Shown here piece by piece: positions 1,424 through 63,999 of a stretch of DNA of 64,000 nucleotides. Each line of letters begins with the position of its first letter. Position 1 is the first letter of the stretch. The notes beneath the pieces were generated by a model that was not told the origin of the DNA, made no database searches, and saw only the letters and a program-made list of their open reading frames with translations. Source of the stretch: Bacteriovoracia bacterium. GTDB lineage: Bacteria > Bdellovibrionota > UBA1018 > JBFWNL01. Location: positions 171,825 to 235,824 of the forward strand of contig JBFWNL010000001.1 in assembly GCA_050251055.1 (NCBI GenBank), in the 5' to 3' direction. The position numbers and the translations under genes were made by a program.

Positions 1424-1572
1424 AAGCCCTCTACTCTGAGCTGCTCCGCGATCCTTGGCAGAGGAAGTCTCATGACGCGCTGCGTATCAGTGGGGTTTTA
1501 AGTAGTCAACTAAAAAGGTCCATATTGAATTTGCCCTGGGTTTGGAACCCATCCGAAGGTATGAGAGGGCCT

Positions 1573-2532
<960 letters not shown>

Positions 2533-2556
2533 TCAGATCTGAGTAGCGAGGGTTTC

Positions 2557-3999: not shown

Positions 4000-5394
<1,395 letters not shown>

Positions 5395-5434
5395 GTAATT
5401 GACGACCTGGGTAGTTCCCGCTAAATATAGCAGA

Positions 5435-6229
5435 ATGAATCACCTGTTTGAAGCGCTTTGGCGGGACTACATCGGCCTCAATCCCGACGCGGGAAAGCTC
5501 TACCAGCTGCTCCTAGGCGAAGGGCTGACGGTGGAAAACGACCATGTCGCTTTTCGTACGTTCGAGGATCCGCGAATCAACATTGATAAGCTGGCGCAAC
5601 CCTTTCTGGCGATCGGATACGTCCGTAAAGATCAATACGTTTTCCGGGAAAAAAAGCTTCGGGCTTGGCACTTTGAGCACATTAGTGGCGATGCGCCCAA
5701 AGTGTTTATTAGCGAGCTAAAAACGCGCGAGTTCAGTCCTCGCTTGCAGGAAATCGTGAAAGGGCTCGTGGATCAGCTGCCCCAGGTCTTCACGCACGAC
5801 GAATCCTTTTTATGGAGGGGTCGGCCTTGGCAGGTGAGTTCGGATCAGTATCGAGCGCTGCTGGGGGAGAGCGAGTATGCGGCTTGGATGGCGGCCTTCG
5901 GTTTTCGCGCCAATCACTTCACGGTGAGCCTGAACAAGATGGGACGTTTCAAGACGGTCGCGGAGTTCAATGCCTTCATTAAAGGAAAAGGGTTCCGCCT
6001 GAACGCGAGCGGGGGCGAAATCAAAGGCGGGCCCAGCGATTTTCTGGAGCAGTCCTCGACGCTCGCCAATGAGATTGACGTGAAATTCTCCGACGGCACG
6101 ATGAGAATCCCCGCTTGTTATTACGAGTTCGCTAAGCGGTATCCTTTACCTGACGGAAAACTTTTTCAGGGATTCGTGGAAAAGTCGGCTGATAAAATTT
6201 TTGAAAGCACCGACACCGTAAAAAGCTAA
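5435..6229 (+). CDS. DUF1338 family 2-oxoadipate dioxygenase/decarboxylase (HglS/YdcJ-like)
   Basis: NDHVAFRT, PKVFISEL, ESEYAAW, NHFTVS, LEQSST, YYEFAKR, FQGF...ADKIFEST motifs. Confidence 0.85.
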   Translation: MNHLFEALWRDYIGLNPDAGKLYQLLLGEGLTVENDHVAFRTFEDPRINIDKLAQPFLAIGYVRKDQYVFREKKLRAWHFEHISGDAPKVFISELKTREFSPRLQEIVKGLVDQLPQVFTHDESFLWRGRPWQVSSDQYRALLGESEYAAWMAAFGFRANHFTVSLNKMGRFKTVAEFNAFIKGKGFRLNASGGEIKGGPSDFLEQSSTLANEIDVKFSDGTMRIPACYYEFAKRYPLPDGKLFQGFVEKSADKIFESTDTVKS

Positions 6230-6269
6230 TTATACCAGGCAGTTGCAAAGCACCTTTAGGTCCTAAAAA

Positions 6270-6298
6270 TTGACCATTTAAGTCGTGTGATGTATGGT
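6270..6298 (+). promoter_or_regulatory. Putative sigma-70 promoter
   Basis: TTGACC-17 bp-TATGGT upstream of an AGGAG SD and the ATG at 6336. Confidence 0.5.
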
Positions 6299-6335
6299 GG
6301 CCGCGTCAGTCGACCTACCCCTTTAGGAGAACTGC

Positions 6336-7628
6336 ATGCGGCTAACCGTTTCAGCTTGGGATTTGATTCAACGTTACCTCATTGTCTTCATGCTGGTGGG
6401 GGTGCCCTTGGCCAACGCCGCACGTATGATTTATGGCGAAGACGATCGGCGCGAGGTGGAGCTTTGGGAATTCAAGCAGCAGCCCTATCAAAACATTGTC
6501 CAGATCCTCACGGAGGACTGGGTACAGGGTGAGGACGGAAAGAAAAAGCGCAAGGTTTATGGGTGCACAGGAACTTTGGTCGGCCCGAATCTGGTGCTGA
6601 CGGCGGCCCACTGCTTTTCGGACGTGCTGGAACGCAAGGCGAGCGGTAACACAGGTTTTAAGGGGGAAAAGCCGTTTATTTATACGGAGAACCTACCGGG
6701 GCACTATGACCAAGTGGTCCGGACGAAATATGTCCGCTGGGGAGGGCTCGCGCCCTGGGAGAAAGATAGTGCCACAGATTGGGCGATTCTCGTGCTGGAG
6801 CGGCCGGTGGCTAAAGCGGGTGAATGGATCCCCGTCGCTTCCCGTACCGCGACCGAAAGGGGAAGCTATCCCTCGGGGTTGGAGCTGGCGGGTTATAGCG
6901 GAGATATAAAAGACGGCGAAGCGTTGAGTACGCATAAGGGATGCCGGTTTCGCGGCGCTTTGGGTTGGAATAGCTGGATGCTACTGCATGATTGCGACTC
7001 GACTCCCGGGTCGTCGGGATCGTCGATCTTGAGTTACGAAAACGGCAAATACGAAGTAGTGGGCCTTCACGTTGCTCATCGGGTGCCGGACGAAACGCCC
7101 CCCCAAAAAGAAGGCGAAGCTGCGGAAAAGCCTAACTATAGGGTGGCGGAGTACTCGGATCGCTATGCGAATATCGCGCTCAATACCCGATTATTCTATA
7201 AGGCATGGGAGGAGCTGATTTGGGAAAATACGACGGTGCCTGGCGGCCTCTCCGCGAACTGTCGCTACGGGTTCATCGATGCCAAATATCCCAAGATGGA
7301 AGACTTCAAAGCCGTATGCCGAGATTTGGGCGTGACAGAAAACGAGTACGCTGCTGGCTGCCCGGGAGTATTGCTGCAAGCAGGTTACGAGGGCCTTCGG
7401 CCTAGTGACCTGCGTGATTGTAAATATGTGAAGACGGAGACGGCTGCGAAGGCGGTCAAAGCTTTTGCCGAACGGAAGGTGAGCCTCGCGAATTACATGC
7501 TCGAGCGCTTGGGAAAGGTGAATACCGACGAGCAATTCGAGTGCGTAAAAAAGTTCCTTCCGGCGGAGGATGCGGGAGCCGGGATAAACGTGAATTTCCG
7601 CAAAGCGGCACGAGATTGCAAACTGTAG
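6336..7628 (+). CDS. Secreted trypsin-like (S1/V8-type) serine protease with Cys-rich C-terminal domain
   Basis: Signal peptide; CTGTLVGPNLVLTAAHC, DWAIL and DCDSTPGSSGS catalytic triad motifs. Confidence 0.9.
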   Translation: MRLTVSAWDLIQRYLIVFMLVGVPLANAARMIYGEDDRREVELWEFKQQPYQNIVQILTEDWVQGEDGKKKRKVYGCTGTLVGPNLVLTAAHCFSDVLERKASGNTGFKGEKPFIYTENLPGHYDQVVRTKYVRWGGLAPWEKDSATDWAILVLERPVAKAGEWIPVASRTATERGSYPSGLELAGYSGDIKDGEALSTHKGCRFRGALGWNSWMLLHDCDSTPGSSGSSILSYENGKYEVVGLHVAHRVPDETPPQKEGEAAEKPNYRVAEYSDRYANIALNTRLFYKAWEELIWENTTVPGGLSANCRYGFIDAKYPKMEDFKAVCRDLGVTENEYAAGCPGVLLQAGYEGLRPSDLRDCKYVKTETAAKAVKAFAERKVSLANYMLERLGKVNTDEQFECVKKFLPAEDAGAGINVNFRKAARDCKL

Positions 7629-14961: not shown

Positions 14962-16221
14962 TTAAACCACACGTCGCTTGCCGCGTTTGATCGTCTTCTT
15001 GGCCGGGGCCTTCTTTTCCGGCGCGGGCGTGACGGCTGGCGCGGATGAGGGATCGAGGTTCGCTTGCAACTTGGTGAGCGCGGCGAGCGCGTTTACGCGT
15101 CCACCGGTGGCGACCTTGTTTTCGAGCTGGGGGAGCTTGTCGACTGAGTCCATGATGATGCGCTTGACCTGAGCCGGAGTGAGGCTCGGATTTTTGGACA
15201 GCAGCAGCGCCGCGATGCCCGAGACGAATGCCGTGGCTTGCGAGGTGCCGGACATGTAGCCGTAACGACCGCCCGGCAACGTGCTGTAGATGTTCTCACC
15301 GGGGGCGGCGACTTCAACCTTGGTTTTGCCCCAGTTAGATGAGGCGAGCAAGTTGTTGTTGATGTCGGTGGCGGCGACCGAGAGGATGTTGCTTAGGCCG
15401 TAGGCCGAAGGATAGTAATAGTGCTCGGGGGCGTCGGTGTTCTGGTGCTCGTTGCCGGCGGCGGCGACGAAAAGGATGCCCTGAGCTTCGGCACGTTTGA
15501 TAGCGAGGTATTCCTCGCGCGAAAATTCAGGCCCGCCGCCGCTATAGTTGATGATACGGGCGCCGTGATCGATGGCGTAATGGATCGCTCGGACGGTGTT
15601 GTTGAGATTCACCGGACCGGGGTTGGAGTCCGAGTAATACTTCACCGACATAATCGAAACTTGGTGGGCTACGCCGCTGACGCCCGTGATGGGGTTCGCC
15701 ACGGCGCCGATAATGCCCGCGACGTGGGTGCCGTGGCCGTGGTTGTCGGCGGGATTGGGCTGGTTGCGCACGAAATCCCAGCCGTAGACGTCTTTGCTGA
15801 ATTTACTGGTAAGGCCGCGACCCCGTTTGGCGTCACTGCTCCCGCTGCTGACATCCTTTTGGGCCCATACGTTTTGGCGCAGATCGGGGTGGGAGGAGTC
15901 CAGGCCCGTGTCGATCACGGCGACGAGTACGTTGCGCGAGCCTTCGGTGATTTTCCAGGCCTCGACGGCGTTGATATGCGAGCGGCCCTGATCGTTGATC
16001 AGGCCCCAGTTCTTGTAGCCCTGAGGGATGACTTTCTTGGCGCCCGGCACGACTGCGGCCAGATGGCGTGCGATGTCGCCGAAGGAGCTAGCGAAGGGTG
16101 CTGATCCTGACAGGCCGACCCAGGCGACGCCGAGGGTGGCGACCAAGCCGAAGGCGGCGAGGGTGCGGGAGAAAAATTTCTTTTCGGGGGATTTTGGTGG
16201 CGACGGCTGCATTGGGTTCAT
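14962..16221 (-). CDS. Subtilisin-like S8 serine peptidase
   Basis: VAVIDTG, HGHGTHVAG, AAAGN, SGTSQAT; N-terminal signal/TM segment. Start chosen downstream of the sigma-54 site. Confidence 0.92.
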   Translation of the reverse strand: MNPMQPSPPKSPEKKFFSRTLAAFGLVATLGVAWVGLSGSAPFASSFGDIARHLAAVVPGAKKVIPQGYKNWGLINDQGRSHINAVEAWKITEGSRNVLVAVIDTGLDSSHPDLRQNVWAQKDVSSGSSDAKRGRGLTSKFSKDVYGWDFVRNQPNPADNHGHGTHVAGIIGAVANPITGVSGVAHQVSIMSVKYYSDSNPGPVNLNNTVRAIHYAIDHGARIINYSGGGPEFSREEYLAIKRAEAQGILFVAAAGNEHQNTDAPEHYYYPSAYGLSNILSVAATDINNNLLASSNWGKTKVEVAAPGENIYSTLPGGRYGYMSGTSQATAFVSGIAALLLSKNPSLTPAQVKRIIMDSVDKLPQLENKVATGGRVNALAALTKLQANLDPSSAPAVTPAPEKKAPAKKTIKRGKRRVV

Positions 16222-16289
16222 CTCTACTTCCACGCTTTCCACTGCTACGGCTGCGGACGCGAACTCAGCGCCCTTCTCAGGGCTACTAG

Positions 16290-16305
16290 AGCAAGGGGTA
16301 TGCCG
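16290..16305 (-). promoter_or_regulatory. Putative sigma-54 promoter
   Basis: Minus strand CGGCAT-ACCCC-TTGCT upstream of the subtilase. Confidence 0.6.
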
Positions 16306-16541
16306 GGCAAGGAATGCCGAGAGGAGAACGCTCATTTATTTTAAGCCTTAAGTATCCAGCGGTTGCTGGCGGTCAGGTCGCTTTTCACGCCCCGAGAAAG
16401 GGGCGATTCTGTCTAAACATTGGTCAGCTGTGTGACTGCCAAGTAGTCGCCTAGGCAGGGCCCAATTTCGTGGGCGCCAGGGGACTGGCGATCAATCCCG
16501 ACCAATTTAGGCCTAGAGAATGACTAGCCGATGCGTAGGAC

Positions 16542-51609: not shown

Positions 51610-52014
51610 TTAGCCTTTCACGGCTTCGAAGAAGGCCAGGATGTCGTCCTGGCGCGAGGAAAAAGTCTTCTGTAGCCTTTCCCAATGCTCTTCCTCGTAC
51701 TGAATCAGGGTTAGGGAGAGTTGGGCGCGCTCGGCATTTAAATTTTCCAGTTCGTCGATCTTGGCGGTCGCTTCAAAAACGAGGTTCGGGGTGGCGCCTT
51801 CGGTTTCGACCTTCAGCAAGACGTGGTGCCCGCGGGCCCCCGTGTTCACCGGAACTTCGACGGAAAGACCCTGCTCCAAGAACTCCACCAGCTGAACATC
51901 ACGCTTCTTGGGGTCCTTAAGATGTCCGCCGACCTCGGTGTTGGTGGTGATGTTCTTTAGCCCGATCTTAAGCGTGATCGATTTGAAGTCGTCGGGATTC
52001 AGGAGGTCTTCCAT
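51610..52014 (-). CDS. Hypothetical protein, degenerate PilZ-like barrel
   Basis: Beta-strand pattern (LVEFLEQGLSVEV...FEATAKI...LSLTL) without RxxxR/DxSxxG. Confidence 0.45.
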   Translation of the reverse strand: MEDLLNPDDFKSITLKIGLKNITTNTEVGGHLKDPKKRDVQLVEFLEQGLSVEVPVNTGARGHHVLLKVETEGATPNLVFEATAKIDELENLNAERAQLSLTLIQYEEEHWERLQKTFSSRQDDILAFFEAVKG

Positions 52015-52073
52015 ATCCTCGATATTCTATGCTCCGGCCCTCGGGCCGGGCAACCTCAAAGACGAGGATCAGC

Positions 52074-53606
52074 TTAGCGGTTGCTGATTTCCTGCGCGTA
52101 GGCGTCTTTACCGGCCTGCAAAAGCTTCAGGTAGAGATCCTGGTCGACCACGACGCCGCTCTTCTCGTATTCAAGATAAAGCATGCGAATCAGCGAATAA
52201 GGATGCGCGCAGCCGGAGAGGGTCTGCAAAACCTGGCGGTAGGCTTCCACCACGTCTAGATCCCTGAGTTCTGGGGTGGCCATCCGGATCCGATGGAAGC
52301 GCGCGCCCGGGGTGGCGGAGCGCTCCATTGCTTTCAGTGCCGCGAGCAACGGCTCCATGGCCTTGGCTGTGCATTGGCTAGCCATGCCCGTGAGGTGGGT
52401 GTAAACGCGGTCGGATCCGCCTAGCTTGACGAACTCGATCTCGGCCTTGAGCGCGGGATCGCGCGACGGCTCGACCATGGCCTCCGCATCGTCCAGTGCC
52501 GGGAAAAATGCAAATTCGGTGGAGGGCGCTACATCCTTGGGTAAGAGTTTACGGATGGCCTTGAACTGGCGCGCGATTGCGCGCGCGGTGGAGTCCCGGC
52601 TGCTGTCCAATGCTTTCAAGAACGAGTCGAGCACGAGTTTCGTGTTCGTGGCGGTCAGGTTGGCCGCGGATGGACCGGTGAGGAAGTTCATGTACATCTT
52701 GAACCACAGGGCCAACGTCTGCTTTTGCACCTTCTCCCCGTAGCCTTTGGGCCAAAACTCGTCCGGGTCGATATAGTAGCCGCGAAGGTGATCGGGGATC
52801 GCCTTCCAGTTCAGCAGCCCTTGGGGGAGGGGGTATTTGGAGGTGCCGCCGAAGCGGCAGCCAGTCATCTTAAATCCAAGGCCCGATTTCTTAACGCGGT
52901 AATCACCTAGGCAGATCTGCTCGAAGAAAAAGTCGCGAACGTCGGGTTCGAGTTCCACTGCAAATTTGCCGACCTCGCCCAAGGCGTCGAGCTTTCCCGG
53001 GCACGCGTTCAAGGTGTCTTTTATGGTTTTCTCATTGAAGAAATATTTTTCGAGAAAAGTAAGCCAGGTCGTGGCGTAGTCTTCCGGGGTCGAGAGGTCC
53101 GGCCACGTAAATCCCGTGAAGTTAAAGAGTCCGGCTCGGCTGTTCTGAAAGATGTCGGTTACGCAAACCTGGCCTCGTAAGCAGCCTTCCTTTCGGTAGC
53201 CGACCTTGGCTTCGGCTTCGGTGGCCGCCGGTGAGTTCTTGATCTTCTCGACTGGGCATCCCTGAAACTGCTTTGCTTGCTGGGCTCGCAGGGTATCTTC
53301 GTGCTGGGTGAGTCTTGAACACACCTCGGCGTCGCAACCATTGGTAATTGTCACGGTCTGCATGCGGTGGCACGCCGCCACGAATTCCCGGCATTTTAAG
53401 TCGTCGGGACCTTTGCCATCAAGATCAGTCCAAAGGCGCAAACAATAGTCCCGCGCGGTACTGCCGTAAGACTCGACGCCCGCGTAGTACTGGAAAAAAC
53501 CGTGAAAGTAGATGCCGTCAAAGTCGCAATCAGCGGACGCGGAAACCGGAGTTCCGAGGAGCCCCCAAGCCAAACCGATGGTCATAAGCGTGCCAGATAG
53601 CTTCAT
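52074..53606 (-). CDS. Secreted Cys-rich hypothetical protein (last gene of the AAA+ operon)
   Basis: Signal peptide MKLSGTL...ASA; ATGA overlap; N-terminal FF...C...C-x6-C...D-x3-C pattern like the sibling genes. Confidence 0.75.
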   Translation of the reverse strand: MKLSGTLMTIGLAWGLLGTPVSASADCDFDGIYFHGFFQYYAGVESYGSTARDYCLRLWTDLDGKGPDDLKCREFVAACHRMQTVTITNGCDAEVCSRLTQHEDTLRAQQAKQFQGCPVEKIKNSPAATEAEAKVGYRKEGCLRGQVCVTDIFQNSRAGLFNFTGFTWPDLSTPEDYATTWLTFLEKYFFNEKTIKDTLNACPGKLDALGEVGKFAVELEPDVRDFFFEQICLGDYRVKKSGLGFKMTGCRFGGTSKYPLPQGLLNWKAIPDHLRGYYIDPDEFWPKGYGEKVQKQTLALWFKMYMNFLTGPSAANLTATNTKLVLDSFLKALDSSRDSTARAIARQFKAIRKLLPKDVAPSTEFAFFPALDDAEAMVEPSRDPALKAEIEFVKLGGSDRVYTHLTGMASQCTAKAMEPLLAALKAMERSATPGARFHRIRMATPELRDLDVVEAYRQVLQTLSGCAHPYSLIRMLYLEYEKSGVVVDQDLYLKLLQAGKDAYAQEISNR

Positions 53607-54999
53607 GGTGCGCCGATCTCCGTTTGGAGTTGATCCAGATAGGTTTTTGCTCGGGCGGTCGTATCTTGATACAGAGAAAACCAGCGTACCCGCTCGCCGA
53701 TGACGGGGCGATCGAGCTGTAAAAATTTCGCCAGTGCTTCCGCCGAGAATAGACGCTGTAGGCGCCTCGCCGGGCTCTCTGTGCGGTCGGTGATCACCGC
53801 CTCCATCGTAGCGATATAAACATAGGCGGCAACCGCCTGCCTTTGGGAGGCAATCGCGACCGGCCACCGGGAAGGCTCGCTATCTAAGGTGGACGCAATA
53901 CGAACCAGCGCCGGCAAAATAGCCGGGTTTTCACGCACAGCGGTCTGGATTTTTTCTCCGGCCAGTGGGAGCGAGTCCTTCGTGCGGAAGTTTTCGATCA
54001 CCGCGTGATGCGGAGCGGTTTTAATCTCCGGAAATGTCAATTCCGCAGGCGTGTCCGCGGCGCTGAGCCCTCGGCGTATGGCTTCGTCAACGTAAAGCTG
54101 GGCCAAGGGTTGATAGAGGCGCGCGCGGCTCATGCCTTTGGGGTATCTTTCGCCACTGACATGGGCCAAGAAGTCACGAAGGTCGCGCACAAGTCCGGAG
54201 TCGGATTGGTCACCCGCGGTCACAAGCCGCTCGTGGAGGGTGCGTAGATAAGCTTGCAAAAAGCGATCGTGGTAGAGGTGGGCGTATAATTCGACTTCGA
54301 ATGTGCCCAGCTTAATTTTCTCCGTTCTCCCGAAGAAATTGATTTTTTGAACGATCGGCTTATCGGATTTGGGGTACATGCCGAGAATCACCCGCTCGTA
54401 GTCAGCGAACGAAATTTTTGGATCAAGTCTAGGGATGACGGTGGTCGGGTAAGCATCCCACGGGCGCTGGCCGCCAATAGATGATCCGAAATGGGGATGC
54501 ACGGTGGTGATGAGTTCCTGCCACGCTTCTTGAGCCTCTTTCACCGAAGCCGTGGGCAAGGTACCGCCCACCGACAGCACGGGTGCGCCGCGGTCGGTGT
54601 ATTCCACCCCGCAAGCGTGCCATTCGGGAGGCCCATTTCTGCGTCCCCCGCTCGCGCGGAGAATGGTTCGCAGTATTCTAATGTTTCCTGCCATTCTTTT
54701 GTCCCGAAGTCGACCTTGGGAGCAGGCGGCGTGGGGGGAAGAATCGTCTGGCAAAGCGCGCGATCCTGCTCGTCGTGCGGATAAGGACCGCCGGGCTCTC
54801 CCGGTTTAGTCCTCAGTAGCTGACGGCACACGCGTCGGTAGAGCGCGCATTCGTCCGAAGCCTTCTCCTGGGTTCCTGGACATTGACGTTGCAAATCGGC
54901 TCGGATGAGTTCGGATGCGAAAAATTCATGGGCCTGCGCTGACGTCACGCCACCGAGGAGCACGATCGACGTTAAGGAAAAGAGTCCAAGACGGTTCAC
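53603..54999 (-). pseudogene. Secreted paralog-family protein split by a frameshift (ORFs 54541-54999 and 53603-54754)
   Basis: Signal peptide and Cys N-domain lie in one frame and the family C-domain in the -1 frame; one extra G in the G5 tract at 54645-54649 would fuse them into about 465 aa. Confidence 0.7.
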
Positions 55000-55988
55000 T
55001 TTTTCTTCTCCTTACCGTTTTTCTTAGGGGTTTCCACGACGCTTTTTCCTTCGAGTTTGGGCCAGAGTTGCTCAATGTGTCCGACGCTAGTGAAGTTTTT
55101 CGCGGCCCCTTCCGTATCAATGCGGATATCCGCAAGCAGCCGGCGGTGGGACTCGGCGACGGCGTCGAGGCTCTTGCCCAAGAAGGCAGCGGGGGTTCCG
55201 CAGACAGCCGATACCTTGCCCACCACATACTCGGTGCCACTGACGACCATGGGCGGGAGTTCTTGGTATATCGACTTGAGGATTCCGATTACTTCGCCAG
55301 AGTTATTGAGCAGGGGGCTGCCGGAATTTCCGGGGCGCGCGGTACAGCCTTTCATATCGACGTTTAGCTTTTCGAAGCCGGTGGTAGAGCACATCTCGAT
55401 GTCGAGCGTGGCGAGATACCCGATGCGGGGTTCGGAAATATAGCGAGCATCGAAAGTGGATGAAATCTTCCAGGGATGCTTCGGAAAGGAATCGGACTTC
55501 GCCGCAATCGGAAGCGGTTCCACGCCTCGGATGGAAACCGGCTCCTCAAGCTCCAAGATCGCGATGTCCTGTTCAGTGCTGTCATAGGTGATCGCGGTCA
55601 TTTGGTACGTTTGGATCTTGCTTACCGCCGCTACGGCGTTTGAGGCGAGATTTGCATCTTGGGGAAACTCACGAAAGATCGCCTGGACGCGGACAAATTG
55701 CTCCGGCCGCCGCGCGATGCAATGGTGGTTCGTCATTACGAACTGTGAGCCGATGAGGAAGCCCGTACACGCGCTGATGTCGTCCATCTTTTCGCCAGCC
55801 GGTGTTTTCATGAGCTTTTCGACGACGAGGGTGGCCACGGCGGCGCGTGCGCGCGCGACGCCCTCGGGCATCACGGTGCTTAAATCGCTCGAGTCCGCGA
55901 GGGCGGCACTCGATGTGAACCCGAGCGCAAGGGCTAGCGGCAGCGCCAGTCCCGCGGGGGAGAAGCCGTCAGTGGATCTCGATCGCAT
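54996..55988 (-). CDS. Secreted trypsin-like serine protease
   Basis: Signal peptide; CTGFLIGSQFVMTNHHC, DIAIL, PGNSGSPLLN. Confidence 0.9.
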   Translation of the reverse strand: MRSRSTDGFSPAGLALPLALALGFTSSAALADSSDLSTVMPEGVARARAAVATLVVEKLMKTPAGEKMDDISACTGFLIGSQFVMTNHHCIARRPEQFVRVQAIFREFPQDANLASNAVAAVSKIQTYQMTAITYDSTEQDIAILELEEPVSIRGVEPLPIAAKSDSFPKHPWKISSTFDARYISEPRIGYLATLDIEMCSTTGFEKLNVDMKGCTARPGNSGSPLLNNSGEVIGILKSIYQELPPMVVSGTEYVVGKVSAVCGTPAAFLGKSLDAVAESHRRLLADIRIDTEGAAKNFTSVGHIEQLWPKLEGKSVVETPKKNGKEKKK

Positions 55989-58900
55989 ACCCTTCGTCCT
56001 TCGTGCCTTGCCCCTCTACGACCACGCGCAAAGTTTTTCCGGCCAAGTCGTTTAGCGTCAGCGTAGGCTTGCCAGTCGCCGGGTCCTTGTGCTCAAGCAT
56101 TGCGCCAAGGAGGTCATAAAAGAGCGTATTGAGGAGGTAATCCAATCCGGTTTCCAGGGGACGCGCGCCCGTACTGTCGCGCCCGTAGTTATCCCGTACA
56201 AGCTTCTCGTAAACCGGCTCGGAGAACTCGATCTTGTAAGTCGCCTTGGGGCGCTTGGCGAGCGCGTCCTTGGCCATGAGCTTCGCTAGCGCCAAGCCTT
56301 CTTCTTGATTGAGGTTGGTGTAAACTAGCCAGTTTTCGAGCGGGATACGCCCGATCGTCCAGTCGGGCATCGCGTTCTTGGCCCGCATCTCCCCTTGAAT
56401 TTCTTTAATCAAAGCGTTCTGGGAGACCATCAGCTGTTGTTTATTGTAGTTCCGCCAGTCGGGGTTAGCCTCTTCCCAGGCCTTGATTTTCCCGATACCA
56501 AAGTTCGACGTCATGAAGATCACCCCGCGGTTGAACACGGCTTTGGCGCCGCTCGTGCTTTTGATCCAGCCTTCATCGAAGAGCACGTCAAACGCCGTGA
56601 TGATTTCTCGATTCGCCTTGTCCACTTCGTCAAACAGCACGAGGCCCGTTTTGTTCTGGTTCATGAAGTCGATGAGCGGCGCGCTGCCGTACCCGACATA
56701 CCCATGCGGCGGACCGAGCAGGCCGTCGACCTTGTGCTCTTCCTTGAACTGCTCCATTTGCCAGGACTCCATCTTGACGCCGAAGTAGCCGGAAAGGGTC
56801 TTGCCGGTGAAAGTTTTGCCGGTCCCCGAGCCGCCGAGAGCCAAGAATAGGCAAACGGGTTTGTTGGGCACGATGCCGCCCTGATAAACACGCCGGCGAA
56901 AGCAGTCGACTACCCGGTCCTTCATGCCGCGTTGACCGATGATCTTGGCGTCTAGTGCGGCGCGGAGGGCCATCACTTTTTCCTCGTCCACGTAAGGAAC
57001 GGGGATCGTCATTTTCTTCGTGGCGGCGAGCAGGTCCGGCAGTTCCACTTGCGCGGATCCCGCGACCCCTTGCAGTGACATCTTTTCGGCAAGCGCCGTG
57101 ACCGCTTCTTCCAGAATGACCATGTCCGAGGCGGGGTGTGGCGTTTCCGGGAGCTGAGTGCCGGCGATTTCAATAAGCTTGCTTTCGAGTCCTGCCGCTA
57201 AGCCGACGCCGCGTTCGGCCGCGAAGGCGTCCGCCCGCATGCGGATGAATTGGGGGAGTTCACGCTTCATGTCGTAGTCGGGAAAAGCGTGGTCGTGCAA
57301 GGTAATCCGTAGCGCTTGCTTTTGATTGAGTTCGCTCGTCTGCTCGTTATTGCCCGAGGTGCTGGCGATCACGATTACCTGGCCCGACTGGGCAGCGGTG
57401 AGAAGGTCGTCGATGAGATCCCCGCCGTTACCGCCCATGCCGATCATCCGCTCGAGATTACGGAAAAAGAGGATAACGCGCTTGTAGCGGGCGGCCGCGA
57501 TGATGTTGGACATCTTTTCCTTCGAGAGGTCGGCTTTGCCCTGGGTGCCCAGGCTCGCGATGTCGATTTCGAAGATGTCCCAGGCGGCGGCAGAATCCTC
57601 GGGCGCTTTGGCGAGCTCTTGGGCGAGGCGGATGACGAGATCGGATGCATCCATGGCTTCGCCCGCTCGAATCATAATATTGCGTGGCTTCTCGAAGTTC
57701 ACCCGTTTACGAAACTCTTCGTAACGCACGGGCAGAAGGGGGCCGGGGCCGACCCGTCCTTGGCGCACGCCGGTAACGAGCGAGCGGCCAAATTTCTCGA
57801 TGGAAGCCGAGGCGGTCTCATCGAACGGCGCACGTACGGCCACGATTTCGGCGGCGGCTGCGGGCTTGCCATTCGGCCCGGCGGCTCGCGGACGCGTAAA
57901 GGTTTGCGAGAGGTTTTCCTGACGATTCACCATCTGGATGCCGTTGATATCGAGCACGAACTGATATTTTCGCGCGTAGTCGTTCCAGTCGAGCTTAAGC
58001 TTGTCGTTCAGAACCGTCTGCTGGCCGTCTTTACCCCAGAACTCCAGCGAAATGAGCCCTTCCCGTTGAAGTACGACATAGACACCATCGGCATTGGGAT
58101 AGGCTTGGGCCGGACAGCTGCCGAACGAGCGCGACTCCGTCGCGGATGACCACACGAGGTTGCCCGTAAGAAAGAACATCTTCGATTTGCCGGGTTCGTA
58201 AAGCTCGATTTTATACTGACCGCTCGGATCGAGGATGCGGGAGTTTGGCTCCGGCCAAATTGAGGCCGGCGTCTGTCCGGGAGGAGATACCTGCGGCTGC
58301 GCGGCGAGAGTGCGCGAAGCCGTGGTGGGAAGGGAAGTCGTGGGGCCTCCCTGTTTTCTTTCCTTCTTCTCCTTGGCTTCCGCTTCGGCTTCTTCTTCCT
58401 TGTCTTTTTCGGCGGGCGGCGCGTCGGGCTTTTTGCCGCCGGCAGCTTCCGGCGTTTTCTTCGGACCAGTGGCGTTACCGCCACCGCTGGCAGCCTTGAG
58501 CTCGGTTTGGACGGCCTCCGATTCAACGCTAAAAATTTCCCCGAGAGCCGAGCGTAGATCTTGCGCCTTGGTCTCCGGATTTAAGAAGAAGGTTTTGCCT
58601 TCGTTATCGGCCGTGATCTTATCGAGCTGGTCGGCGTACATTTTGTCCTGGCCGACGTGCACGACGCTGAATCCATTTTTGCAGGCGGACTTATGTTTAG
58701 GCAAGGTGGCCATGAGCCGCTCGGGGCCGGCTCCACCACAGCTATGCTCACCGTCGGTGAGCAGCACGACTTGCAGGCAGCCTCCACCCGCATAGGCGTC
58801 CATTTCCTTGTTCGCCAAGGTCAACGCGCCCGTGATGTCGGTGGCCCCCCCACAGACGATCGAGTTCATGGCCGCCATGAATTCTCCACCGTTGTATTCC

Positions 58901-59226
58901 TTGCCCACTCGAATGAGCACGTTGGCGGTGCCGGGCCCGCATCCGTTAAACGTAATAAGCCCGAGGGAGTACGGGTTTTTTTTCTTATCGAGCTTTGCCA
59001 CGATATCCGCCGCCGTAAGCTGCACCTGGTGCAGCATTCCTTCCGGAGGAGTCATCGAACCCGAGATGTCGAGCACGAACAGGAAATCTTTGCGGGCACC
59101 GCGGACGATTCCGGCGTCGCCTCCGACCGGAGGGTCAGCCAGGGCGTTCAAGTAGGTGAGTCCCAGGAGAAGCGTCGTCACCCAAAAGGATCGAACCAAG
59201 AATGGCAAGTAACGGGCGCGGCTCAT
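55969..59226 (-). CDS. Signal peptide + vWA + ClpA/B-type AAA+ ATPase (degenerate D1, intact D2)
   Basis: MIDAS DISGS/T/TDG; D2 GGSGTGKT, GPPHGYVGYG pore loop, LFDEVDKA, MTSN, GRI, GARPL. Confidence 0.88.
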   Translation of the reverse strand: MSRARYLPFLVRSFWVTTLLLGLTYLNALADPPVGGDAGIVRGARKDFLFVLDISGSMTPPEGMLHQVQLTAADIVAKLDKKKNPYSLGLITFNGCGPGTANVLIRVGKEYNGGEFMAAMNSIVCGGATDITGALTLANKEMDAYAGGGCLQVVLLTDGEHSCGGAGPERLMATLPKHKSACKNGFSVVHVGQDKMYADQLDKITADNEGKTFFLNPETKAQDLRSALGEIFSVESEAVQTELKAASGGGNATGPKKTPEAAGGKKPDAPPAEKDKEEEAEAEAKEKKERKQGGPTTSLPTTASRTLAAQPQVSPPGQTPASIWPEPNSRILDPSGQYKIELYEPGKSKMFFLTGNLVWSSATESRSFGSCPAQAYPNADGVYVVLQREGLISLEFWGKDGQQTVLNDKLKLDWNDYARKYQFVLDINGIQMVNRQENLSQTFTRPRAAGPNGKPAAAAEIVAVRAPFDETASASIEKFGRSLVTGVRQGRVGPGPLLPVRYEEFRKRVNFEKPRNIMIRAGEAMDASDLVIRLAQELAKAPEDSAAAWDIFEIDIASLGTQGKADLSKEKMSNIIAAARYKRVILFFRNLERMIGMGGNGGDLIDDLLTAAQSGQVIVIASTSGNNEQTSELNQKQALRITLHDHAFPDYDMKRELPQFIRMRADAFAAERGVGLAAGLESKLIEIAGTQLPETPHPASDMVILEEAVTALAEKMSLQGVAGSAQVELPDLLAATKKMTIPVPYVDEEKVMALRAALDAKIIGQRGMKDRVVDCFRRRVYQGGIVPNKPVCLFLALGGSGTGKTFTGKTLSGYFGVKMESWQMEQFKEEHKVDGLLGPPHGYVGYGSAPLIDFMNQNKTGLVLFDEVDKANREIITAFDVLFDEGWIKSTSGAKAVFNRGVIFMTSNFGIGKIKAWEEANPDWRNYNKQQLMVSQNALIKEIQGEMRAKNAMPDWTIGRIPLENWLVYTNLNQEEGLALAKLMAKDALAKRPKATYKIEFSEPVYEKLVRDNYGRDSTGARPLETGLDYLLNTLFYDLLGAMLEHKDPATGKPTLTLNDLAGKTLRVVVEGQGTKDEGYAIEIH

Positions 59227-62200
59227 TTTTCACCTCCGGCGACGAAGTCCGACGTGATTAGGTTTTTCCGGTCGAGCTGCTTCTGGATTTCGGGATCTTC
59301 GAGGTTGGTGATGACTTCGAGTTTTCCGTTTGGCATCAGCACAATGTAAAAGTCATGGAGATCCGCAAGCGAGTCTTCCGTCAGGGTTTCCTGGATTTGG
59401 TTGAATTTTTCCGCGACCTTGGTGAAGACTTCATTGTCGAGCGTGTTCTTGATCGTGTGTCCGTTGCCGGCGTTCGCGTTGCGGTTCTTGTCGCTGGCGG
59501 CCATGCCTTGGCGGACGACTTTAAGCGCGTAGCCGCGAGAAAGGTGGATCTTCACGGGGCGATTCCAGTTGTCTTTTAGGCGCGTTTCCAGGCGCTTGAG
59601 CTGAAGCGCGAGCACGCCCAAACCTTGATCTTCGGTAAATGGGGTGAAGATGCAAACCTTGCTCGAAATCCGGCTCCAGATGAAGTCGGGGATCTGCCCG
59701 CGCTCGAGATTCTCCTCGTTCGTGCGCACCAGCCCGCCTTGGGCGATGCGGTCGATAAAGAGCGCCTCGTTGTCGGCGTTGACTTCGGCCATGCCGGATT
59801 CGAGTGAAATCGCCTGAATGTCCTTCGCCGCGTAATTGGCGGTGAGGATTACGAGGGTGCTGCGGAAGTCGAGGTAGTCATCGTCGTTCTCGCCGGATAA
59901 GGGGTAGCGTCCTTCCTCGAGAATGGGGTGCAGGGCCTTAATGACGTCGGGCTCGGCCTTGTCGATTTCGTCAAACAACACAATCCGGGGCTTGCTGCCC
60001 ATTTCCTTGAGCTTGGCGGCATCTTTGGACGAGATGAGCTGCGAAGGACCGGCGGCCAAGTTGATTGTATAGAGGGGGAACTTGAGCACATCGGCGAGCG
60101 CGCGAGCGCTTTCGGTTTTGCCCACTCCTTTGGGGCCGATGAAGAGAAACGTCCCGTAGCCGCGCGTCTTGTCGTACATGCGGGTCCGGATCATAGAAGC
60201 CGCCTGGGCGAGGCGCTCGATCGCGCGATCGTGGCCGACGATGCGCTGGTGCATTGCCGCTTTGAAGGAGTCGTCGTCGTGGGAAATTAATTTGACCTGG
60301 TAGGTCGCCTCCGCGAACTGTCCCAGAACCTCGGTGTTTACGAGGGTCGGCTGATTGCCGGAAACGGCGGCTTGCTGGGTGCGGGCGTAAGCGCCAATTT
60401 CCGCGAGCGTGGTGAGGGTCCGCTCAGGTTCGGCGAGTTCCGGGTGAAATTGCGCGGACATTTCGAAGACGCGAGCCAGGACGTCGTCGCGGAATTGGAC
60501 GGCGTGACGCATCTGGATCTGGTAGAGCTGGGATCGGACGATGGCGCGGAGTACGTCGCCCTGGGGTGGCTGTACGTAAATGGTGCGGGCCAGGGTGTCG
60601 AGCACCGGGTTGTTCTTCTTGGCTTGTTCCCAGTGCTTATCTTCCGTAATGGTGACGATGAGCATGGAGCGGCTTTCGAGGTCGCTTACGTCGTTGCCGT
60701 TCGCCAAGCTGTTGAATGCGCCCATGAGCAAAGTCAGCTGTTCGCTCGCTCCCATGTTTCCTTGCTGTTTAAGGAAATTGTCGATCACGAGCGCGGCGCG
60801 CTTGCGCCAGAATACCTTACGCAGCTCGCCCCACGGGTTCGGCGCGGTCTTCGCCGCGTCGTTCGGCCCTGCGCTTGCCCGGGCGTTTTCGATTTTGATC
60901 CCGGCTTCCCAAGTGGATTGGATTTTTTCGGGGGGAATTCCGATCAATTTAAAACTCTCGATCTCGCGCGGCAGGGTCAGCTTGTTAGCCCACGCCAGCT
61001 GGTTCGCTAGGTCTTGGACCACGTCGGCGGCATTCACCCCGCGAGGAGCCACGATATTGATCCAGCCCGTGGAGCCGTAGACGAGGTTGCCTAACAGGGC
61101 CTGTGAGTATTCGGGGCGGTGGACGACATTCATGCTCTCGCCGAGCTCCGCGCGCTGGGTATAGTCGGTGAATTTGTGCTCGCGCAGGACTTTGTGGTCT
61201 TCGTCGCTCAGGCGGTTACGGAGGCTGTAGTTCGCGGTTTCGAGCTCGGACCCGTCGTAGAGCACCAGATAGCGCTCCCATTGCCCGTTGGCATTGCGAT
61301 TCTGCACCGTGGCTTGGTTATTGATGATTGAAAACTTCTTGCTTGCGTTGCCGGGACGGGAAAAGGAAACGCGGACGGATTGGGTGCGCGTGTCGTACTT
61401 CAGGAAAGAGAGCTTCTGCGAGGCGGATTCGCTCAGATCGCCCTCCAGAAAAAAGATGCCTTCGCGGATGATCGAGACGCGCATCGCGAGCTGGGAAAGA
61501 TCGAAGTTCGCGGGGGCGAGTTCGGTTAGCGCTCCCTCTTGGGTGGCATAGTATAAAGCGGCTCGCTTACTCTGCGGGGATTGGCCTACGAAGTAAAAGC
61601 CGGACGAAGATACGTCGCTCGTCACGATCTGGCTAAACGGGGTTACGGGAAAATCCTTCACTTGTTTTCCGTCGTTGCTGGCGTAGGTCAGGATTTTCTG
61701 GCCATTTACCTTGCGGGTGACGAGCACGCCGCCGGCGATGGGGTAGAGATCTCCCGCGGAGGGCGGCGTTCCTGGCAAGATGAGGCGCTTCTCATCGATT
61801 TCGAAGCGTAGTTTGGCGTTCTGGCGAAGTACCCAAGGGAGGGCATTGGGGTTGCCGACTTGAATGCTCACGAAGCCGATTTGGTAGCTGCCGTTTCCGC
61901 TATTTTGCGCTACTTGCGGGATCGCGGGCTTTGGTTCACCGGGGCCCGCGATTTTCACGTCGCGCGTCAGTGTGCCGGGCTGATCGGGGTTGTCGATGAC
62001 ACAAGAAGCGACGTTGTATTGCGCGACGATCCCGCCGTTTCCGCGCTCCAGGGTCAAGGAGGTCTGGTCTTGATAGTAAAGGCCGGGCTTAATCGTCGCC
62101 TTGTATCCGTCTTTTCTGAGTCGCGCCTGAAGGAGCGTGGCCTCGTCTTCGGGGAGCGCGAAGTAATGGTAAGAAGGAGCGGTGCCTTTGGCTGCCTGGG

Positions 62201-62264
62201 CAAGCGTGGCGGAAAAAAGCATGAGACCGCTGATGGCTAAAAAGGAACTCACCTGTGATTTCAT
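59223..62264 (-). CDS. Signal peptide + beta-rich domain + ClpA/B-type AAA+ ATPase (degenerate D1)
   Basis: AQA signal; FTDYTQRAELG D1 remnant; D2 GPKGVGKT, LFDEIDKA, LEEGR, DFRSTLVILTAN; no GYVG loop. Confidence 0.85.
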   Translation of the reverse strand: MKSQVSSFLAISGLMLFSATLAQAAKGTAPSYHYFALPEDEATLLQARLRKDGYKATIKPGLYYQDQTSLTLERGNGGIVAQYNVASCVIDNPDQPGTLTRDVKIAGPGEPKPAIPQVAQNSGNGSYQIGFVSIQVGNPNALPWVLRQNAKLRFEIDEKRLILPGTPPSAGDLYPIAGGVLVTRKVNGQKILTYASNDGKQVKDFPVTPFSQIVTSDVSSSGFYFVGQSPQSKRAALYYATQEGALTELAPANFDLSQLAMRVSIIREGIFFLEGDLSESASQKLSFLKYDTRTQSVRVSFSRPGNASKKFSIINNQATVQNRNANGQWERYLVLYDGSELETANYSLRNRLSDEDHKVLREHKFTDYTQRAELGESMNVVHRPEYSQALLGNLVYGSTGWINIVAPRGVNAADVVQDLANQLAWANKLTLPREIESFKLIGIPPEKIQSTWEAGIKIENARASAGPNDAAKTAPNPWGELRKVFWRKRAALVIDNFLKQQGNMGASEQLTLLMGAFNSLANGNDVSDLESRSMLIVTITEDKHWEQAKKNNPVLDTLARTIYVQPPQGDVLRAIVRSQLYQIQMRHAVQFRDDVLARVFEMSAQFHPELAEPERTLTTLAEIGAYARTQQAAVSGNQPTLVNTEVLGQFAEATYQVKLISHDDDSFKAAMHQRIVGHDRAIERLAQAASMIRTRMYDKTRGYGTFLFIGPKGVGKTESARALADVLKFPLYTINLAAGPSQLISSKDAAKLKEMGSKPRIVLFDEIDKAEPDVIKALHPILEEGRYPLSGENDDDYLDFRSTLVILTANYAAKDIQAISLESGMAEVNADNEALFIDRIAQGGLVRTNEENLERGQIPDFIWSRISSKVCIFTPFTEDQGLGVLALQLKRLETRLKDNWNRPVKIHLSRGYALKVVRQGMAASDKNRNANAGNGHTIKNTLDNEVFTKVAEKFNQIQETLTEDSLADLHDFYIVLMPNGKLEVITNLEDPEIQKQLDRKNLITSDFVAGGEK

Positions 62265-62347
62265 TCCAGTCCTTTCCCGTTTTGACGCACCGTATTATAT
62301 TTGCGGCGGTTTCGCAAGTTGGTATTGGATGAAAAAAGTCGGTTTAT

Positions 62348-63640
62348 TTAGGGGCTTACCGTTGATTCGAGGCTGTCGGTAAGCGCCTTGGGCAGCAGGG
62401 CGAGGGCCCGTTCCGAGGCATCCAGATATTCGTTTCTCCAGCGGGGTTGGCCACCGGAGGGCGGTTGATCGAGCTCCAAGCACCCGGATAAGCGCCGAAG
62501 CAGGAAGAGGTACTCTAGGCGCTCGGGGGCCCGGCCCGTGAGGGAGGTGGCTAGCGCGTCAACCGAGCCAATATAGATATGAGCGCCGAGCGCCTGTACG
62601 CTCGCGAAGGAATCCTCTTGGAACGACGCGGGGTCGAGTTTCCGACGCATCTCCAGCGTCTGGATCGCGTAGTTTAATAAGGAACCCCCCGGAGGGTTGG
62701 CGAGCAGATTTCGACTGGCCTCCTCTTGCACCCTCCAGGCGGATGGAGAGACCTCGTTGTCGGCGACCAGTCCCGCGAGGATCTGCCGCTGTACTTCCGT
62801 CTTTCCCCAGTTGGCGATCTGGGCTTTGAGCTGGGCTTGGTTTTCCACCAGCTTGGCCCGCCGATCGAGATACGATTCGATTTCACCGCGAATTCGCATG
62901 ACTTCGGCCAGTAGCCCGGCCGCGCTCGGCATATCCGCATTTTCTTCCAGAGCGGTTTGAAGCTCACGAAGATCCCGTAGAAACTCTTCCGGCTTCGTGT
63001 AGTCTCGTTCGGTGTAACGCCGCTGCGTGAGCTTCACGTAGTGGGTAAAGAGCGCCAGCTCCATCTGGTGCTGGTAGGCATCGAGCTGGTTTTTTGGAAT
63101 CGTCGCTTCGAAGAGATCGAATCCAAGGCGGAATCTATGGCGGTAGTTAGCGGGAAAGCGCACGGCTTCCAAGAGCCGTGAAAAGTCCTTGAACTGCGTC
63201 GCGGTATTGAGGCCGGGTAGCCAACCCCGCAACCGATCGGCCCATTGCATAGGCTGGAGTTCATAATCTTTTTTAAGGGAGCTGAATTTTTTTAAGAGCG
63301 AGGTCACGGTTTCCTCGCCCGTGGGGAGGCGAGGGGACGGGACGCCGATGCTTCCCTTAGGCGCGGGGGCGGGCTCCAAGTAGCCCAATCCTCGCTCCCT
63401 TCGGCTTTTTCGGAGCTGCTCGCAAAGCGCCTGGTCCTCGCTATCGAGCTCCTTGGAGGTTTCGCAGGCGAATGCCAAGCTGTCACAGAGGGCGGCGTCC
63501 CGGCCCGATAGGGTCGGCAAGTGAATGCAAGTATTGATGGTAAAACTCACCAGCCGGGGATCGGAAAAAAACTGATACGCCTCCGCTGGCCTAGGCACTA
63601 GGCTGCCGAGGAGCAGAATCAGGGCGCCCGTTCGTCTCAT
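62348..63640 (-). CDS. Secreted paralog-family hypothetical protein
   Basis: Signal MRRTGALILLL...AEA; YQFF...C...C-x6-C...DQALC; C-domain HIYIG...LELDQPPSGGQPRWRNEYLD. Confidence 0.8.
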   Translation of the reverse strand: MRRTGALILLLGSLVPRPAEAYQFFSDPRLVSFTINTCIHLPTLSGRDAALCDSLAFACETSKELDSEDQALCEQLRKSRRERGLGYLEPAPAPKGSIGVPSPRLPTGEETVTSLLKKFSSLKKDYELQPMQWADRLRGWLPGLNTATQFKDFSRLLEAVRFPANYRHRFRLGFDLFEATIPKNQLDAYQHQMELALFTHYVKLTQRRYTERDYTKPEEFLRDLRELQTALEENADMPSAAGLLAEVMRIRGEIESYLDRRAKLVENQAQLKAQIANWGKTEVQRQILAGLVADNEVSPSAWRVQEEASRNLLANPPGGSLLNYAIQTLEMRRKLDPASFQEDSFASVQALGAHIYIGSVDALATSLTGRAPERLEYLFLLRRLSGCLELDQPPSGGQPRWRNEYLDASERALALLPKALTDSLESTVSP

Positions 63641-63999
63641 GGCTTGGCCGCCTCCTGGGAGAGCAATGGCATGAGCGTTTGCAGCTGGGACGAACGATCT
63701 TGATAGTCCGTCCACCAGCGGACTTGCTCGCCTTGAACGGGCTGATCGAGGTTTAACCGGGCCCGAAGCTCCGTGAGCAGGGCAGCGACCTGGATCTTTG
63801 CTTCCGCCGACTCCGCCGGCATCTGCAGAAGCGCGCTTACGGCGCCGATGTACGCGTTGGCGGCCACGCTTTGCAGTCCTCCGAAATCAGGGGAGGTCCG
63901 CAAGTCGGGATCCTGCAGGGTGCGGAGTTCGTAGATGGCCAGCAGGCGCGCGGGGAAAGTATTTTGCGGTTCGCGAATCGAAAGCGTGGTTTGCGCGAA
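63637..63999 (-). CDS. Paralog-family protein, C-terminal part (5'-truncated by window)
   Basis: Frame open to the window edge; NAYIG...LNLDQPVQGEQVRWWTDYQD; ATGA overlap with the next gene. Confidence 0.75.
   Translation of the reverse strand, partial: FAQTTLSIREPQNTFPARLLAIYELRTLQDPDLRTSPDFGGLQSVAANAYIGAVSALLQMPAESAEAKIQVAALLTELRARLNLDQPVQGEQVRWWTDYQDRSSQLQTLMPLLSQEAAKP

Follow-up and report, generated by a model that had tools for sequence, protein, structure and literature searches.

An operon coding for Clp/Hsp100-type ATPases with predicted signal peptides lies in a 64,000-nucleotide stretch of a Bacteriovoracia bacterium (hereafter the window; contig JBFWNL010000001.1 of GenBank assembly GCA_050251055.1, positions 171,825 to 235,824). 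The window corresponds to C1:171825-235824 of the source genome, G000 (21 contigs, 93.5% complete). All open reading frames of the operon are on the minus strand (Table 1). Pfam scans assigned AAA_2 domains to its two ATPases, AAA1 (E = 1e-16) and the vWA-AAA2 fusion (E = 3e-21), a VWA domain to the latter (E = 4e-11) and the Trypsin family to the serine protease, E (E = 2e-16); the same scans found no family for the Cys-rich paralogs or for G. The operon comprises nine genes and reaches ~3.3 kb past the window on the upstream side, where the rest of the paralog up1, a G-like protein of 475 amino acids (aa) and a second trypsin-like protease of 308 aa are co-oriented with it. With T1 standing for B-like and T2 for G-like paralogs, the gene order is protease - T2 - T1 - T1 - AAA1 - vWA-AAA2 - protease - T1 (broken) - T2. 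Junctions overlap by 4-20 nt: ATGA stop/start overlaps are found at 63637-40 (up1/B), 59223-26 (AAA1/vWA-AAA2) and 53603-06 (F/G), a GTGA overlap at 54996-99 (E/F) and a 20-nt overlap at 55969-88 (vWA-AAA2/E). The sole gap, 83 nt between B and AAA1, may contain an internal promoter, to judge from its hexamer; this TATAAT is absent from the list produced by a consensus promoter scan. An initial annotation of the window had described the co-oriented genes, the five overlapping junctions and a continuation of the operon past the window; all five junctions are present in the sequence and three more genes follow upstream. The co-oriented operon of ATPases with predicted export signals is real, beyond chance.

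Table 1. Genes and domains of the operon (window coordinates) and TLC/NTT-like genes discussed in the text (coordinates of the locus or contig named)
Feature	Location	Strand	Remarks
Type-1 Cys-rich paralog up1, 3' end	63637-63999	minus	whole gene G000:C1:235461-236825, 454 aa, extends past window
Type-1 Cys-rich paralog B	62348-63640	minus	430 aa; signal peptide, 4-Cys N-terminal motif, Pro-rich linker, helical body
B/AAA1 intergenic gap	62265-62347	minus	83 nt; perfect TATAAT and GGAAAGGA ribosome-binding-like site before AAA1; candidate internal promoter
AAA1 (AAA+ #1, window C)	59223-62264	minus	1013 aa
AAA1 signal peptide	62193-62264	minus	
AAA1 beta-rich N-domain	61074-62192	minus	
AAA1 D2 (both Walker motifs present)	AAA_2 at 59799-60155	minus	D1 degenerate
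vWA-AAA2 fusion (vWA-AAA+ #2, window D)	55969-59226	minus	1085 aa
vWA-AAA2 signal peptide	59137-59226	minus	
vWA with MIDAS	58555-59088	minus	Pfam VWA at residues 47-224
Charged linker	58327-58509	minus	
AAA2 N-domain	57802-58326	minus	
AAA2 degenerate D1	about 57007-57801	minus	
AAA2 complete D2 motor	AAA_2 at 56392-56859	minus	
Trypsin-fold serine protease E	54996-55988	minus	330 aa; signal peptide
Protease E domain	55266-55772	minus	catalytic His/Asp/Ser triad intact
Type-1 paralog F, first frame	54541-54999	minus	signal peptide, Cys motif, linker; stop after 152 codons
Type-1 paralog F, second (-1) frame	53603-54754	minus	helical body of paralog family
Type-2 Cys-rich protein G	52074-53606	minus	510 aa, 14 Cys
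TLC/NTT-like genes, L128 (G406:C4)	4479-7142		
TLC/NTT-like gene, L130 (G291:C11)	1459-2733		
TLC/NTT-like gene, L124	14367-14969		
TLC/NTT-like gene, G000:C7	151107-152366		

The Sec-type signal peptides that had been recognized at each visible 5' end were also detected by our test, which was positive for nine out of nine operon proteins. When the proteins of all six loci carrying related genes (see below) and of the paralog loci were considered, 30 out of 32 were positive (29 in an earlier variant of the test), and the two that were missed, AAA2 of genome G291 (locus C30) and the protease of genome G406, both have hydrophobic N-termini. The AAA1 family scored 9 out of 9. The controls were 119 ordinary Clp proteins, with 1 positive, and 119 RhlE helicases, with 6 positives; these protein sets were used instead of a genome-wide background with any start allowed, which proved uninformative (49% positive). 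A short h-region, in most cases with Lys or Arg ahead of it, leads to small residues at positions -3 and -1, and hydrophobic N-termini are kept as a feature, not as a sequence, across loci that are 22-38% identical. According to the positive-inside rule, Lys/Arg in most n-regions implies that the bulk of these proteins is outside. No 19-residue window past residue 45 had a mean hydropathy above 1.6 in 16 G000 proteins, which argues against further membrane segments in those 16, and no lipobox was seen at any predicted cleavage site when the N-termini were read by eye. Judged by these features, the proteins look Sec-exported, with cleavable-looking predicted signal peptides. Since LptD and Lnt are encoded in the window the cell is diderm, and a GspD secretin, scoring above the family cut-off in G000, G291 and G406, indicates that a route across the outer membrane (type II secretion) exists in all three.

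The motifs of AAA2 were read from an alignment with the ClpA and ClpB proteins of G000 itself. Its second AAA module (D2) retains Walker A, the DE of Walker B, the sensor-1 Asn, the Arg finger (GR[IV]), the sensor-2 GAR and the Tyr of the YVG pore loop in five out of five aligned proteins, at pairwise identities of 25-38%; the alignment indicates that the motor residues of AAA2 are under clear constraint. In the first module (D1), Walker A and B are intact in four out of four AAA2 proteins from outside the window and both are lost in the window protein, which has RAGEAMDAS in place of Walker A and RN in place of Walker B. Where ClpA has its ClpP-docking loop (IGF/IGL), AAA2 has a longer and different insertion. 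The metal ion-dependent adhesion site (MIDAS; DxSxS...T...D) is intact in five out of five vWA proteins, which also share four invariant Cys residues, and four Cys are conserved in the N-domain of the five unfused AAA2 proteins; conserved Cys in both domains fit an oxidising compartment. The vWA proteins end in a Lys/Glu/Asp/Pro-rich tail, which in the window forms the linker to AAA2. At the other five loci vWA and AAA2 are separate genes, and their fusion in the window argues that vWA works on AAA2. One AAA2 (G291 C30; L123 4086-7556) contains three AAA modules, the extra one being a duplicate of D2; the two D2 copies are sisters in the tree described below (support 90/92).

AAA1 has a different pattern of motifs. 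Among 11 aligned sequences, the D2 Walker A and the sensor-1 Asn are found in all, the Arg finger in 9 and the DE of Walker B in 6 (DD in the other 5), and the D1 Walker A Lys is retained in 6 and missing in the window copy. Neither the YVG pore loop nor the sensor-2 Arg (GAR motif) occurs in any (0/11 for both), so that AAA1 looks like a nucleotide-binding partner rather than a translocase. It was also observed that all five AAA1 proteins without the D1 Walker A Lys keep the D2 Walker B Glu, and that five of the six with the D1 Lys have Asp there. A structural model of the N-domain of AAA1, made for the P0130 version, is all-beta (predicted local distance difference test score 77, predicted template-modelling score 0.66). 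Foldseek returned beta-propellers only, with template-modelling scores of 0.2-0.3, and the top match of a Foldseek-independent search was a bacterial DPP4 propeller (Z = 7.7) with other peptidase propellers close behind; the modelled domain may be called propeller-like, as a lead and not as an assignment. An extra N-terminal domain of ~280 aa, similar to FGE-sulfatase (PF03781, E = 2e-8), precedes the common N-domain in the AAA1 of G000 C10 (21852-25478; L019 1853-5479) and in P0126.

The protease of the window matches Pfam Trypsin with 61.3 bits versus a cut-off of 20.6, and the His-Asp-Ser triad is kept in seven out of seven proteases. Pfam scans of E and its relatives revealed no PDZ family, and the HtrA/DegP model TIGR02037 gave 24.9 bits on E versus a cut-off of 416.

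Together AAA1, vWA, AAA2 and the trypsin-fold protease make up a four-part module. In this order it was found at six loci, which belong to four genomes or contigs and, where the phylum is known, to Bdellovibrionota: G000 C1 (the window), G000 C10, G291 C11, G291 C30, G406 C4 and the metagenome contig L124. At the five loci other than the window, the vWA protein is 271-288, AAA2 784-1156 and the protease 248-312 aa long, each with its own predicted signal peptide; the copies of G000 are 22-38% identical to the others. An exhaustive HMMER search with AAA1 against 1.84 billion cluster representatives gave 11481 matches at E <= 0.001, but, the query aside, the alignment extends upstream of the AAA part in no more than eight of them, at 21-26% identity: P0124, P0125, P0126, P0127, P0128 (the second copy of G000), P0130, P0132 and P0134. 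All eight begin with signal-peptide-like N-termini. The G291 C30 protein and P0134 are identical, P0124 shares 76% identity with the G406 protein and the L124 protein is 99.8% identical to P0130, a cluster mate of which carries the source label of a Bacteriovoracaceae metagenome-assembled genome (MAG). The independent lineages that could be read with their context are therefore three, namely G000, genus g181 (G291 and G406) and L124, and four more are represented by single proteins.

When 401 genomes of the phylum were searched with a profile of the AAA1 N-domain, 23 of them matched at E <= 0.001; full-length matches were confined to G000 and G291, and those of the remaining 21 are short tails on ClpB-sized frames. 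A metagenome scan with a four-row alignment of this domain identified one contig, L124. A contig scan with full AAA1, patterned on Walker A, yielded at least 80 ordinary Clp loci, none with an AAA1 N-domain, and a word-indexed search with vWA-AAA2 yielded, among the matches listed, only itself and ordinary Clp proteins (with saturation at 8000 candidates, this has no bearing on absence). Lack of conservation in any other genome had been named at the outset as what would speak against an exported machine. The core gene set is kept in other genomes, and for the core this objection falls; the Cys-rich paralogs were detected in G000 alone among the 401 phylum genomes. The rarity of the module argues against a general predation tool.

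The window copy is a second, fast-evolving copy of the module in G000 with both D1 sites degenerate: it is a divergent, expanded copy, and it may be partly decaying. The other G000 copy (G000:C10:19351-31793, plus strand) is located between two minus-strand genes which, from N-terminal motifs, presumably code for RpoD and DnaG; if so, the C10 cassette was inserted into a dnaG-rpoD region.

A maximum-likelihood tree built from 37 D2 domains places AAA1 (11 rows; support 99/98) and AAA2 (7 rows; 100/97) in one group each, separate from ClpA, ClpB and ClpC; every extracted row was kept in this tree and its Clp rows are a hand-picked handful of search matches. The NCBIfam Clp models fall far below their cut-offs: for the window vWA-AAA2 the scores are 118 versus 993 bits (ClpA), 112 versus 885 (ClpV) and 99 versus 1232 (ClpB), for the C10 AAA2 257 versus the ClpA cut-off of 993, and for the window AAA1 88-90 bits. 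The best sequence matches in PDB are ClpE, Hsp104, ClpB, ClpC and ClpA (E = 4e-25 to 1e-22), and one source labels several proteins of the AAA1/AAA2 type 'ClpA'. It appears that AAA1 and AAA2 represent two new Clp/Hsp100 subfamilies in an unexpected compartment. Six further metagenome proteins (P0138, P0141, P0159, P0171, P0192 and P0146) have signal-peptide-like N-termini followed by two or three tandem AAA_2 domains; P0146 also carries ankyrin repeats, and five of the six make up a separate group of the D2 tree (99/99). Export of Clp-like ATPases may be more widespread than has been described.

The two cassettes of protease and Cys-rich protein genes that flank the window module are a lineage-specific addition. 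G and the upstream T2 (C1:236822-238249) are paralogs (E = 4e-42, 23% identity over 470 aa), and T1 and T2 share solely the N-terminal four-cysteine motif. Paralog B has no Pfam family, no PDB match and no look-alike in the Atlas. Members of the Cys-rich families were detected in 1 of the 401 phylum genomes, G000 itself, and when the paralog alignment served as query in a word-indexed search, the matches listed from a saturated candidate list were two proteins, both from G000. Secreted proteins downstream of the G291 module were considered as relatives of these paralogs and a comparison found no relationship. Their detection in G000 alone means that the paralogs are not core parts, and the adaptor, substrate or delivery-subunit roles within the machine that the initial annotation had offered for them are not supported; one of them is broken. 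In G000 they adjoin both operon proteases and, on contig C8, a third protease of the same subtype, and one stands by itself on C9. From this recurring adjacency we infer that they are most likely clients or regulators of that protease subtype and hence of the two proteases that they adjoin in the operon.

The paralog gene that had been placed between the protease and G, here called F, does exist but is divided between two reading frames. When a profile of the paralog family was aligned to it, profile positions 15-113 fell in frame 0 (E = 3e-10) and positions 147-442 in the -1 frame (E = 3e-28), the switch occurring somewhere within the linker. DNA of the locus is present in two landfill metagenome runs of one study, and a contig from the second sample spans 54314-58819 with 0 differences and 0 gaps, so that the frameshift is no one-off assembly error. 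Programmed frameshifting was considered: no canonical slippery heptamer was seen in the overlap of the two frames, which is why we read the change as a frameshift mutation. It is probably inactivating. The first 152 codons, covering the signal peptide and the Cys motif, could still be produced.

Outside the operon, the window encodes an RhlE helicase whose nearest named relatives are from Oligoflexia, Bdellovibrionales and Bdellovibrionota MAGs (67-74% identity). A 134-aa open reading frame without known family is located 3' of the operon on the same strand (51610-52014), with a promoter-like site (52024-52053) just upstream of it. A 457-aa subtilisin-type protease (14962-16335), for which the best NCBIfam model is mycosin (207 bits versus a cut-off of 279), is unrelated to the operon.

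An exported ATPase needs a source of nucleotide, and genes resembling TLC/NTT nucleotide exchangers lie beside or near the module at three loci. In G406, two tandem TLC-like genes directly follow the protease gene (gaps of 11 and 84 nt); the 441-aa protein of this genome matches Pfam TLC (PF03219) with 37.6 versus 21 bits over profile positions 162-371 of 491 and the NTP/NDP exchanger model TIGR00769 with E = 2e-8 (33.5 bits versus a cut-off of 387). An orthologue of the second G406 transporter is encoded 138 nt after the protease at G291 C11, and in L124 a TLC-like gene is found on the same strand two genes further on from the protease. Classical TLC translocases were sought in G000 and G291 and dismissed: Pfam TLC gave a match of 21.9 bits over 47 positions in G000 (contig C7) and none in G291, and it was a protein query that later found the divergent family. 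The adjacency of TLC-like genes and the module in two independent lineages is unlikely to be due to chance, and transport in either direction means that nucleotides are present in the periplasm while these genes are expressed. Exchangers as neighbours fit ATP taken from prey and self-supplied periplasmic ATP equally well; prey or lysate ATP is favoured by the phylum and by the leakiness of porins.

With a probability of about 0.5, we propose that the conserved four-part module specifies a Sec-exported, ATP-dependent machine for pulling, unfolding and proteolysis of proteins, fuelled by external ATP. In such a machine the MIDAS domain would capture a client, AAA2 would thread and unfold it and the trypsin-fold protease would cut it, with AAA1 possibly serving as a non-threading partner or regulator. 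Action would take place outside the cytoplasm, whether in the periplasm or, by way of type II secretion, farther out, and the ATP would come from permeabilised prey or lysate, which fits the phylum and the exchanger genes beside the module in two lineages. An exported machine of this kind had been put forward in the initial annotation. Predicted export, intact motor residues and conservation of the core speak for that part of it; the role given to the paralogs is not supported, the analogy with MoxR is mistaken and the foreign ATP that it had assumed is putative.

Several observations weigh against this proposal. All evidence is computational, the signal peptides were called by a crude rule-based test of n-, h- and c-regions and not by a trained predictor, and the assembly of the parts into one machine is a prediction. 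No RNA run was found among the runs listed for the locus. The module is present in only 2 of the 401 sampled phylum genomes, G000 included, and the AAA1 N-domain profile found only G291 and its congener G406 among 151 genomes of the order of G291. The catalytic Glu of the D2 Walker B is replaced by Asp in 5 of 11 AAA1 proteins. In the D2 tree the window AAA1 and AAA2 are on very long branches (2.4 and 2.5), and these branches, the degenerate D1 sites and the frameshifted F suggest that the window copy could be decaying. As to energy, ATP is not known to occur in the bacterial periplasm, from which it would leak out via porins. The single TLC-like gene of G000 is on contig C7, unlinked to the module, and the family occurs in 111 of the 401 genomes, so that its presence alone means little. 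G000 is a putative predator only.

The same exported machine might run on ATP of its own cell if an inner-membrane TLC/NTT exchanger worked outward and fed the periplasm. Carriers that feed ATP to the endoplasmic reticulum (ER) lumen and a mitochondrial carrier that exports ATP are precedents for this, and the TLC-like genes that adjoin the module in G406 and at G291 C11 and lie near it in L124, together with the one member encoded in G000, fit such a supply. According to PMC5381601, NTT genes are widespread in free-living bacteria and their functional characterisation is centred on parasites. Yet the transporter is unlinked at three of the six loci (G000 C1, G000 C10 and G291 C30), G406 and G291 belong to one genus and so provide, with L124, just two independent adjacencies, most of the phylum genomes that have the family are without the module, the TLC matches are partial and weak, porins should let the ATP escape, and the direction of transport is unreadable from sequence. 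We therefore consider an own-ATP supply, though the main rival, unlikely, and hold external ATP to be the better reading of the same neighbourhoods.

The absence of the pore loop and sensor 2 from every AAA1, the Walker B Asp in part of that family and the degenerate D1 sites of the window copies would also be expected if the proteins were exported but did not use ATP on site, the AAA+ rings acting, free of nucleotide or already loaded with it, as scaffolds or holdases for secreted proteases and the clients of these; a source of ATP that is only putative adds to this. It is hard to explain, however, how the full D2 motif set would have been kept in five out of five AAA2 proteins at such low identity without selection for hydrolysis and threading, and the D1 Walker motifs are intact in the four AAA2 proteins from outside the window; a passive scaffold seems to us quite improbable. 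The chance that the proteins are not exported at all is slighter still. Their N-termini would then be membrane anchors or start-codon artefacts, and the genes a cytoplasmic AAA+/vWA/protease set for conflict or quality control. Sets of vWA, AAA+ and protease proteins do exist in cytoplasmic conflict systems, and PADLOC gave weak matches of the AAA domains to DolB and PDC-M37B (E = 1e-13 to 1e-28), but these reflect the generic AAA core; there was none for the vWA protein or the paralogs and the remaining ones are generic protease matches. The starts are fixed by the stop/start overlaps, the short h-regions have the flanking residues of signal peptides, this N-terminal feature persists between highly divergent loci and cysteine pairs are conserved, all of which favours export.

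According to textbooks, quality control outside the inner membrane is ATP-free (DegP, SurA, Skp, BAM). A conserved Hsp100-type motor bearing a signal peptide and keeping all catalytic and threading residues calls this rule for the envelope into question. Should the machine act on prey, its unfoldase and protease, injected or co-located, would amount to a predatory weapon of a new kind that uses the ATP of the victim; if the neighbouring exchanger feeds it, an energy supply in the periplasm would come to light. A broader idea, which we regard as doubtful, is that some Gram-negatives have an ATP economy beyond their cytoplasm, in which a TLC/NTT exchanger brings ATP to the periplasm, or taps prey ATP there, for the exported unfoldase with its MIDAS adaptor, AAA+ partner and protease. 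If this broader idea is true, the module would be the first ATP-dependent protein-unfolding machine of the bacterial cell envelope, a counterpart in bacteria of the ER lumen, with its ATP carrier and lumenal AAA+ proteins, and of the motor of the Plasmodium translocon of exported proteins (PTEX).

No described system with this architecture was known when the window was annotated and none was found in the literature searched, in which subscription journals were not covered; in that literature the term 'periplasmic ATPase' is mostly used in ESX/type VII or mycobacterial contexts. Like ClpA, ClpB and ClpC, the window ATPases and their relatives have tandem AAA modules, and AAA2 shares with them a D2 with the GYVG loop, Arg finger and GAR, and ClpB_D2-small is found in relatives. 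Unlike them, the proteins have predicted signal peptides, the Cys-bearing N-domain of AAA2 is new and no Clp_N (PF02861) is present in the window proteins or their relatives. The protease next to AAA2 has the trypsin fold and is not ClpP. With DegP/HtrA the protease shares the fold (Deg1 and DegP chains are matched weakly, E = 7e-6 to 8e-5), but it has no PDZ domain and, by context, would not be ATP-independent.

In MoxR-vWA pairs (RavA-ViaA and NorQ-NorD), in the Mg-chelatase BchI/BchD and in midasin, an AAA+ ring works with a MIDAS domain that holds the client. The module resembles these in having a MIDAS domain on a charged linker to an AAA+ ring and in occurring in fused and split forms. 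However, those systems use cytoplasmic, single-module ATPases of the MoxR, Mg-chelatase or dynein-like type, and the ATPases of the window, predicted to be exported and encoded with a protease, have AAA_2 as best Pfam family, AAA_5 being weaker; the earlier comparison with MoxR-type proteins was thus mistaken, as the ATPases are of the Clp/Hsp100 D2 type. Torsins are AAA+ proteins exported to the ER lumen and related to the D2 of Clp, with a single AAA module and an Arg finger supplied by LAP1/LULL1. AAA1 is like them in being without a threading pore loop, and the Pfam Torsin scores are 17.6 bits for the window vWA-AAA2 and 24.2 for the C10 AAA2 versus a cut-off of 27; the literature searched, subscription journals not covered, had no mention of a bacterial or prokaryotic torsin. 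HSP101 of Plasmodium PTEX is a Clp/Hsp100 ATPase with a signal peptide that acts outside the cytoplasm of its own cell. It matches over D2 with E = 3e-17 (structures 6e10 and 6e11), which is generic D2 similarity, and it differs from the module in being eukaryotic and belonging to a membrane translocon that also contains EXP2 and PTEX150, with no protease or vWA partner.

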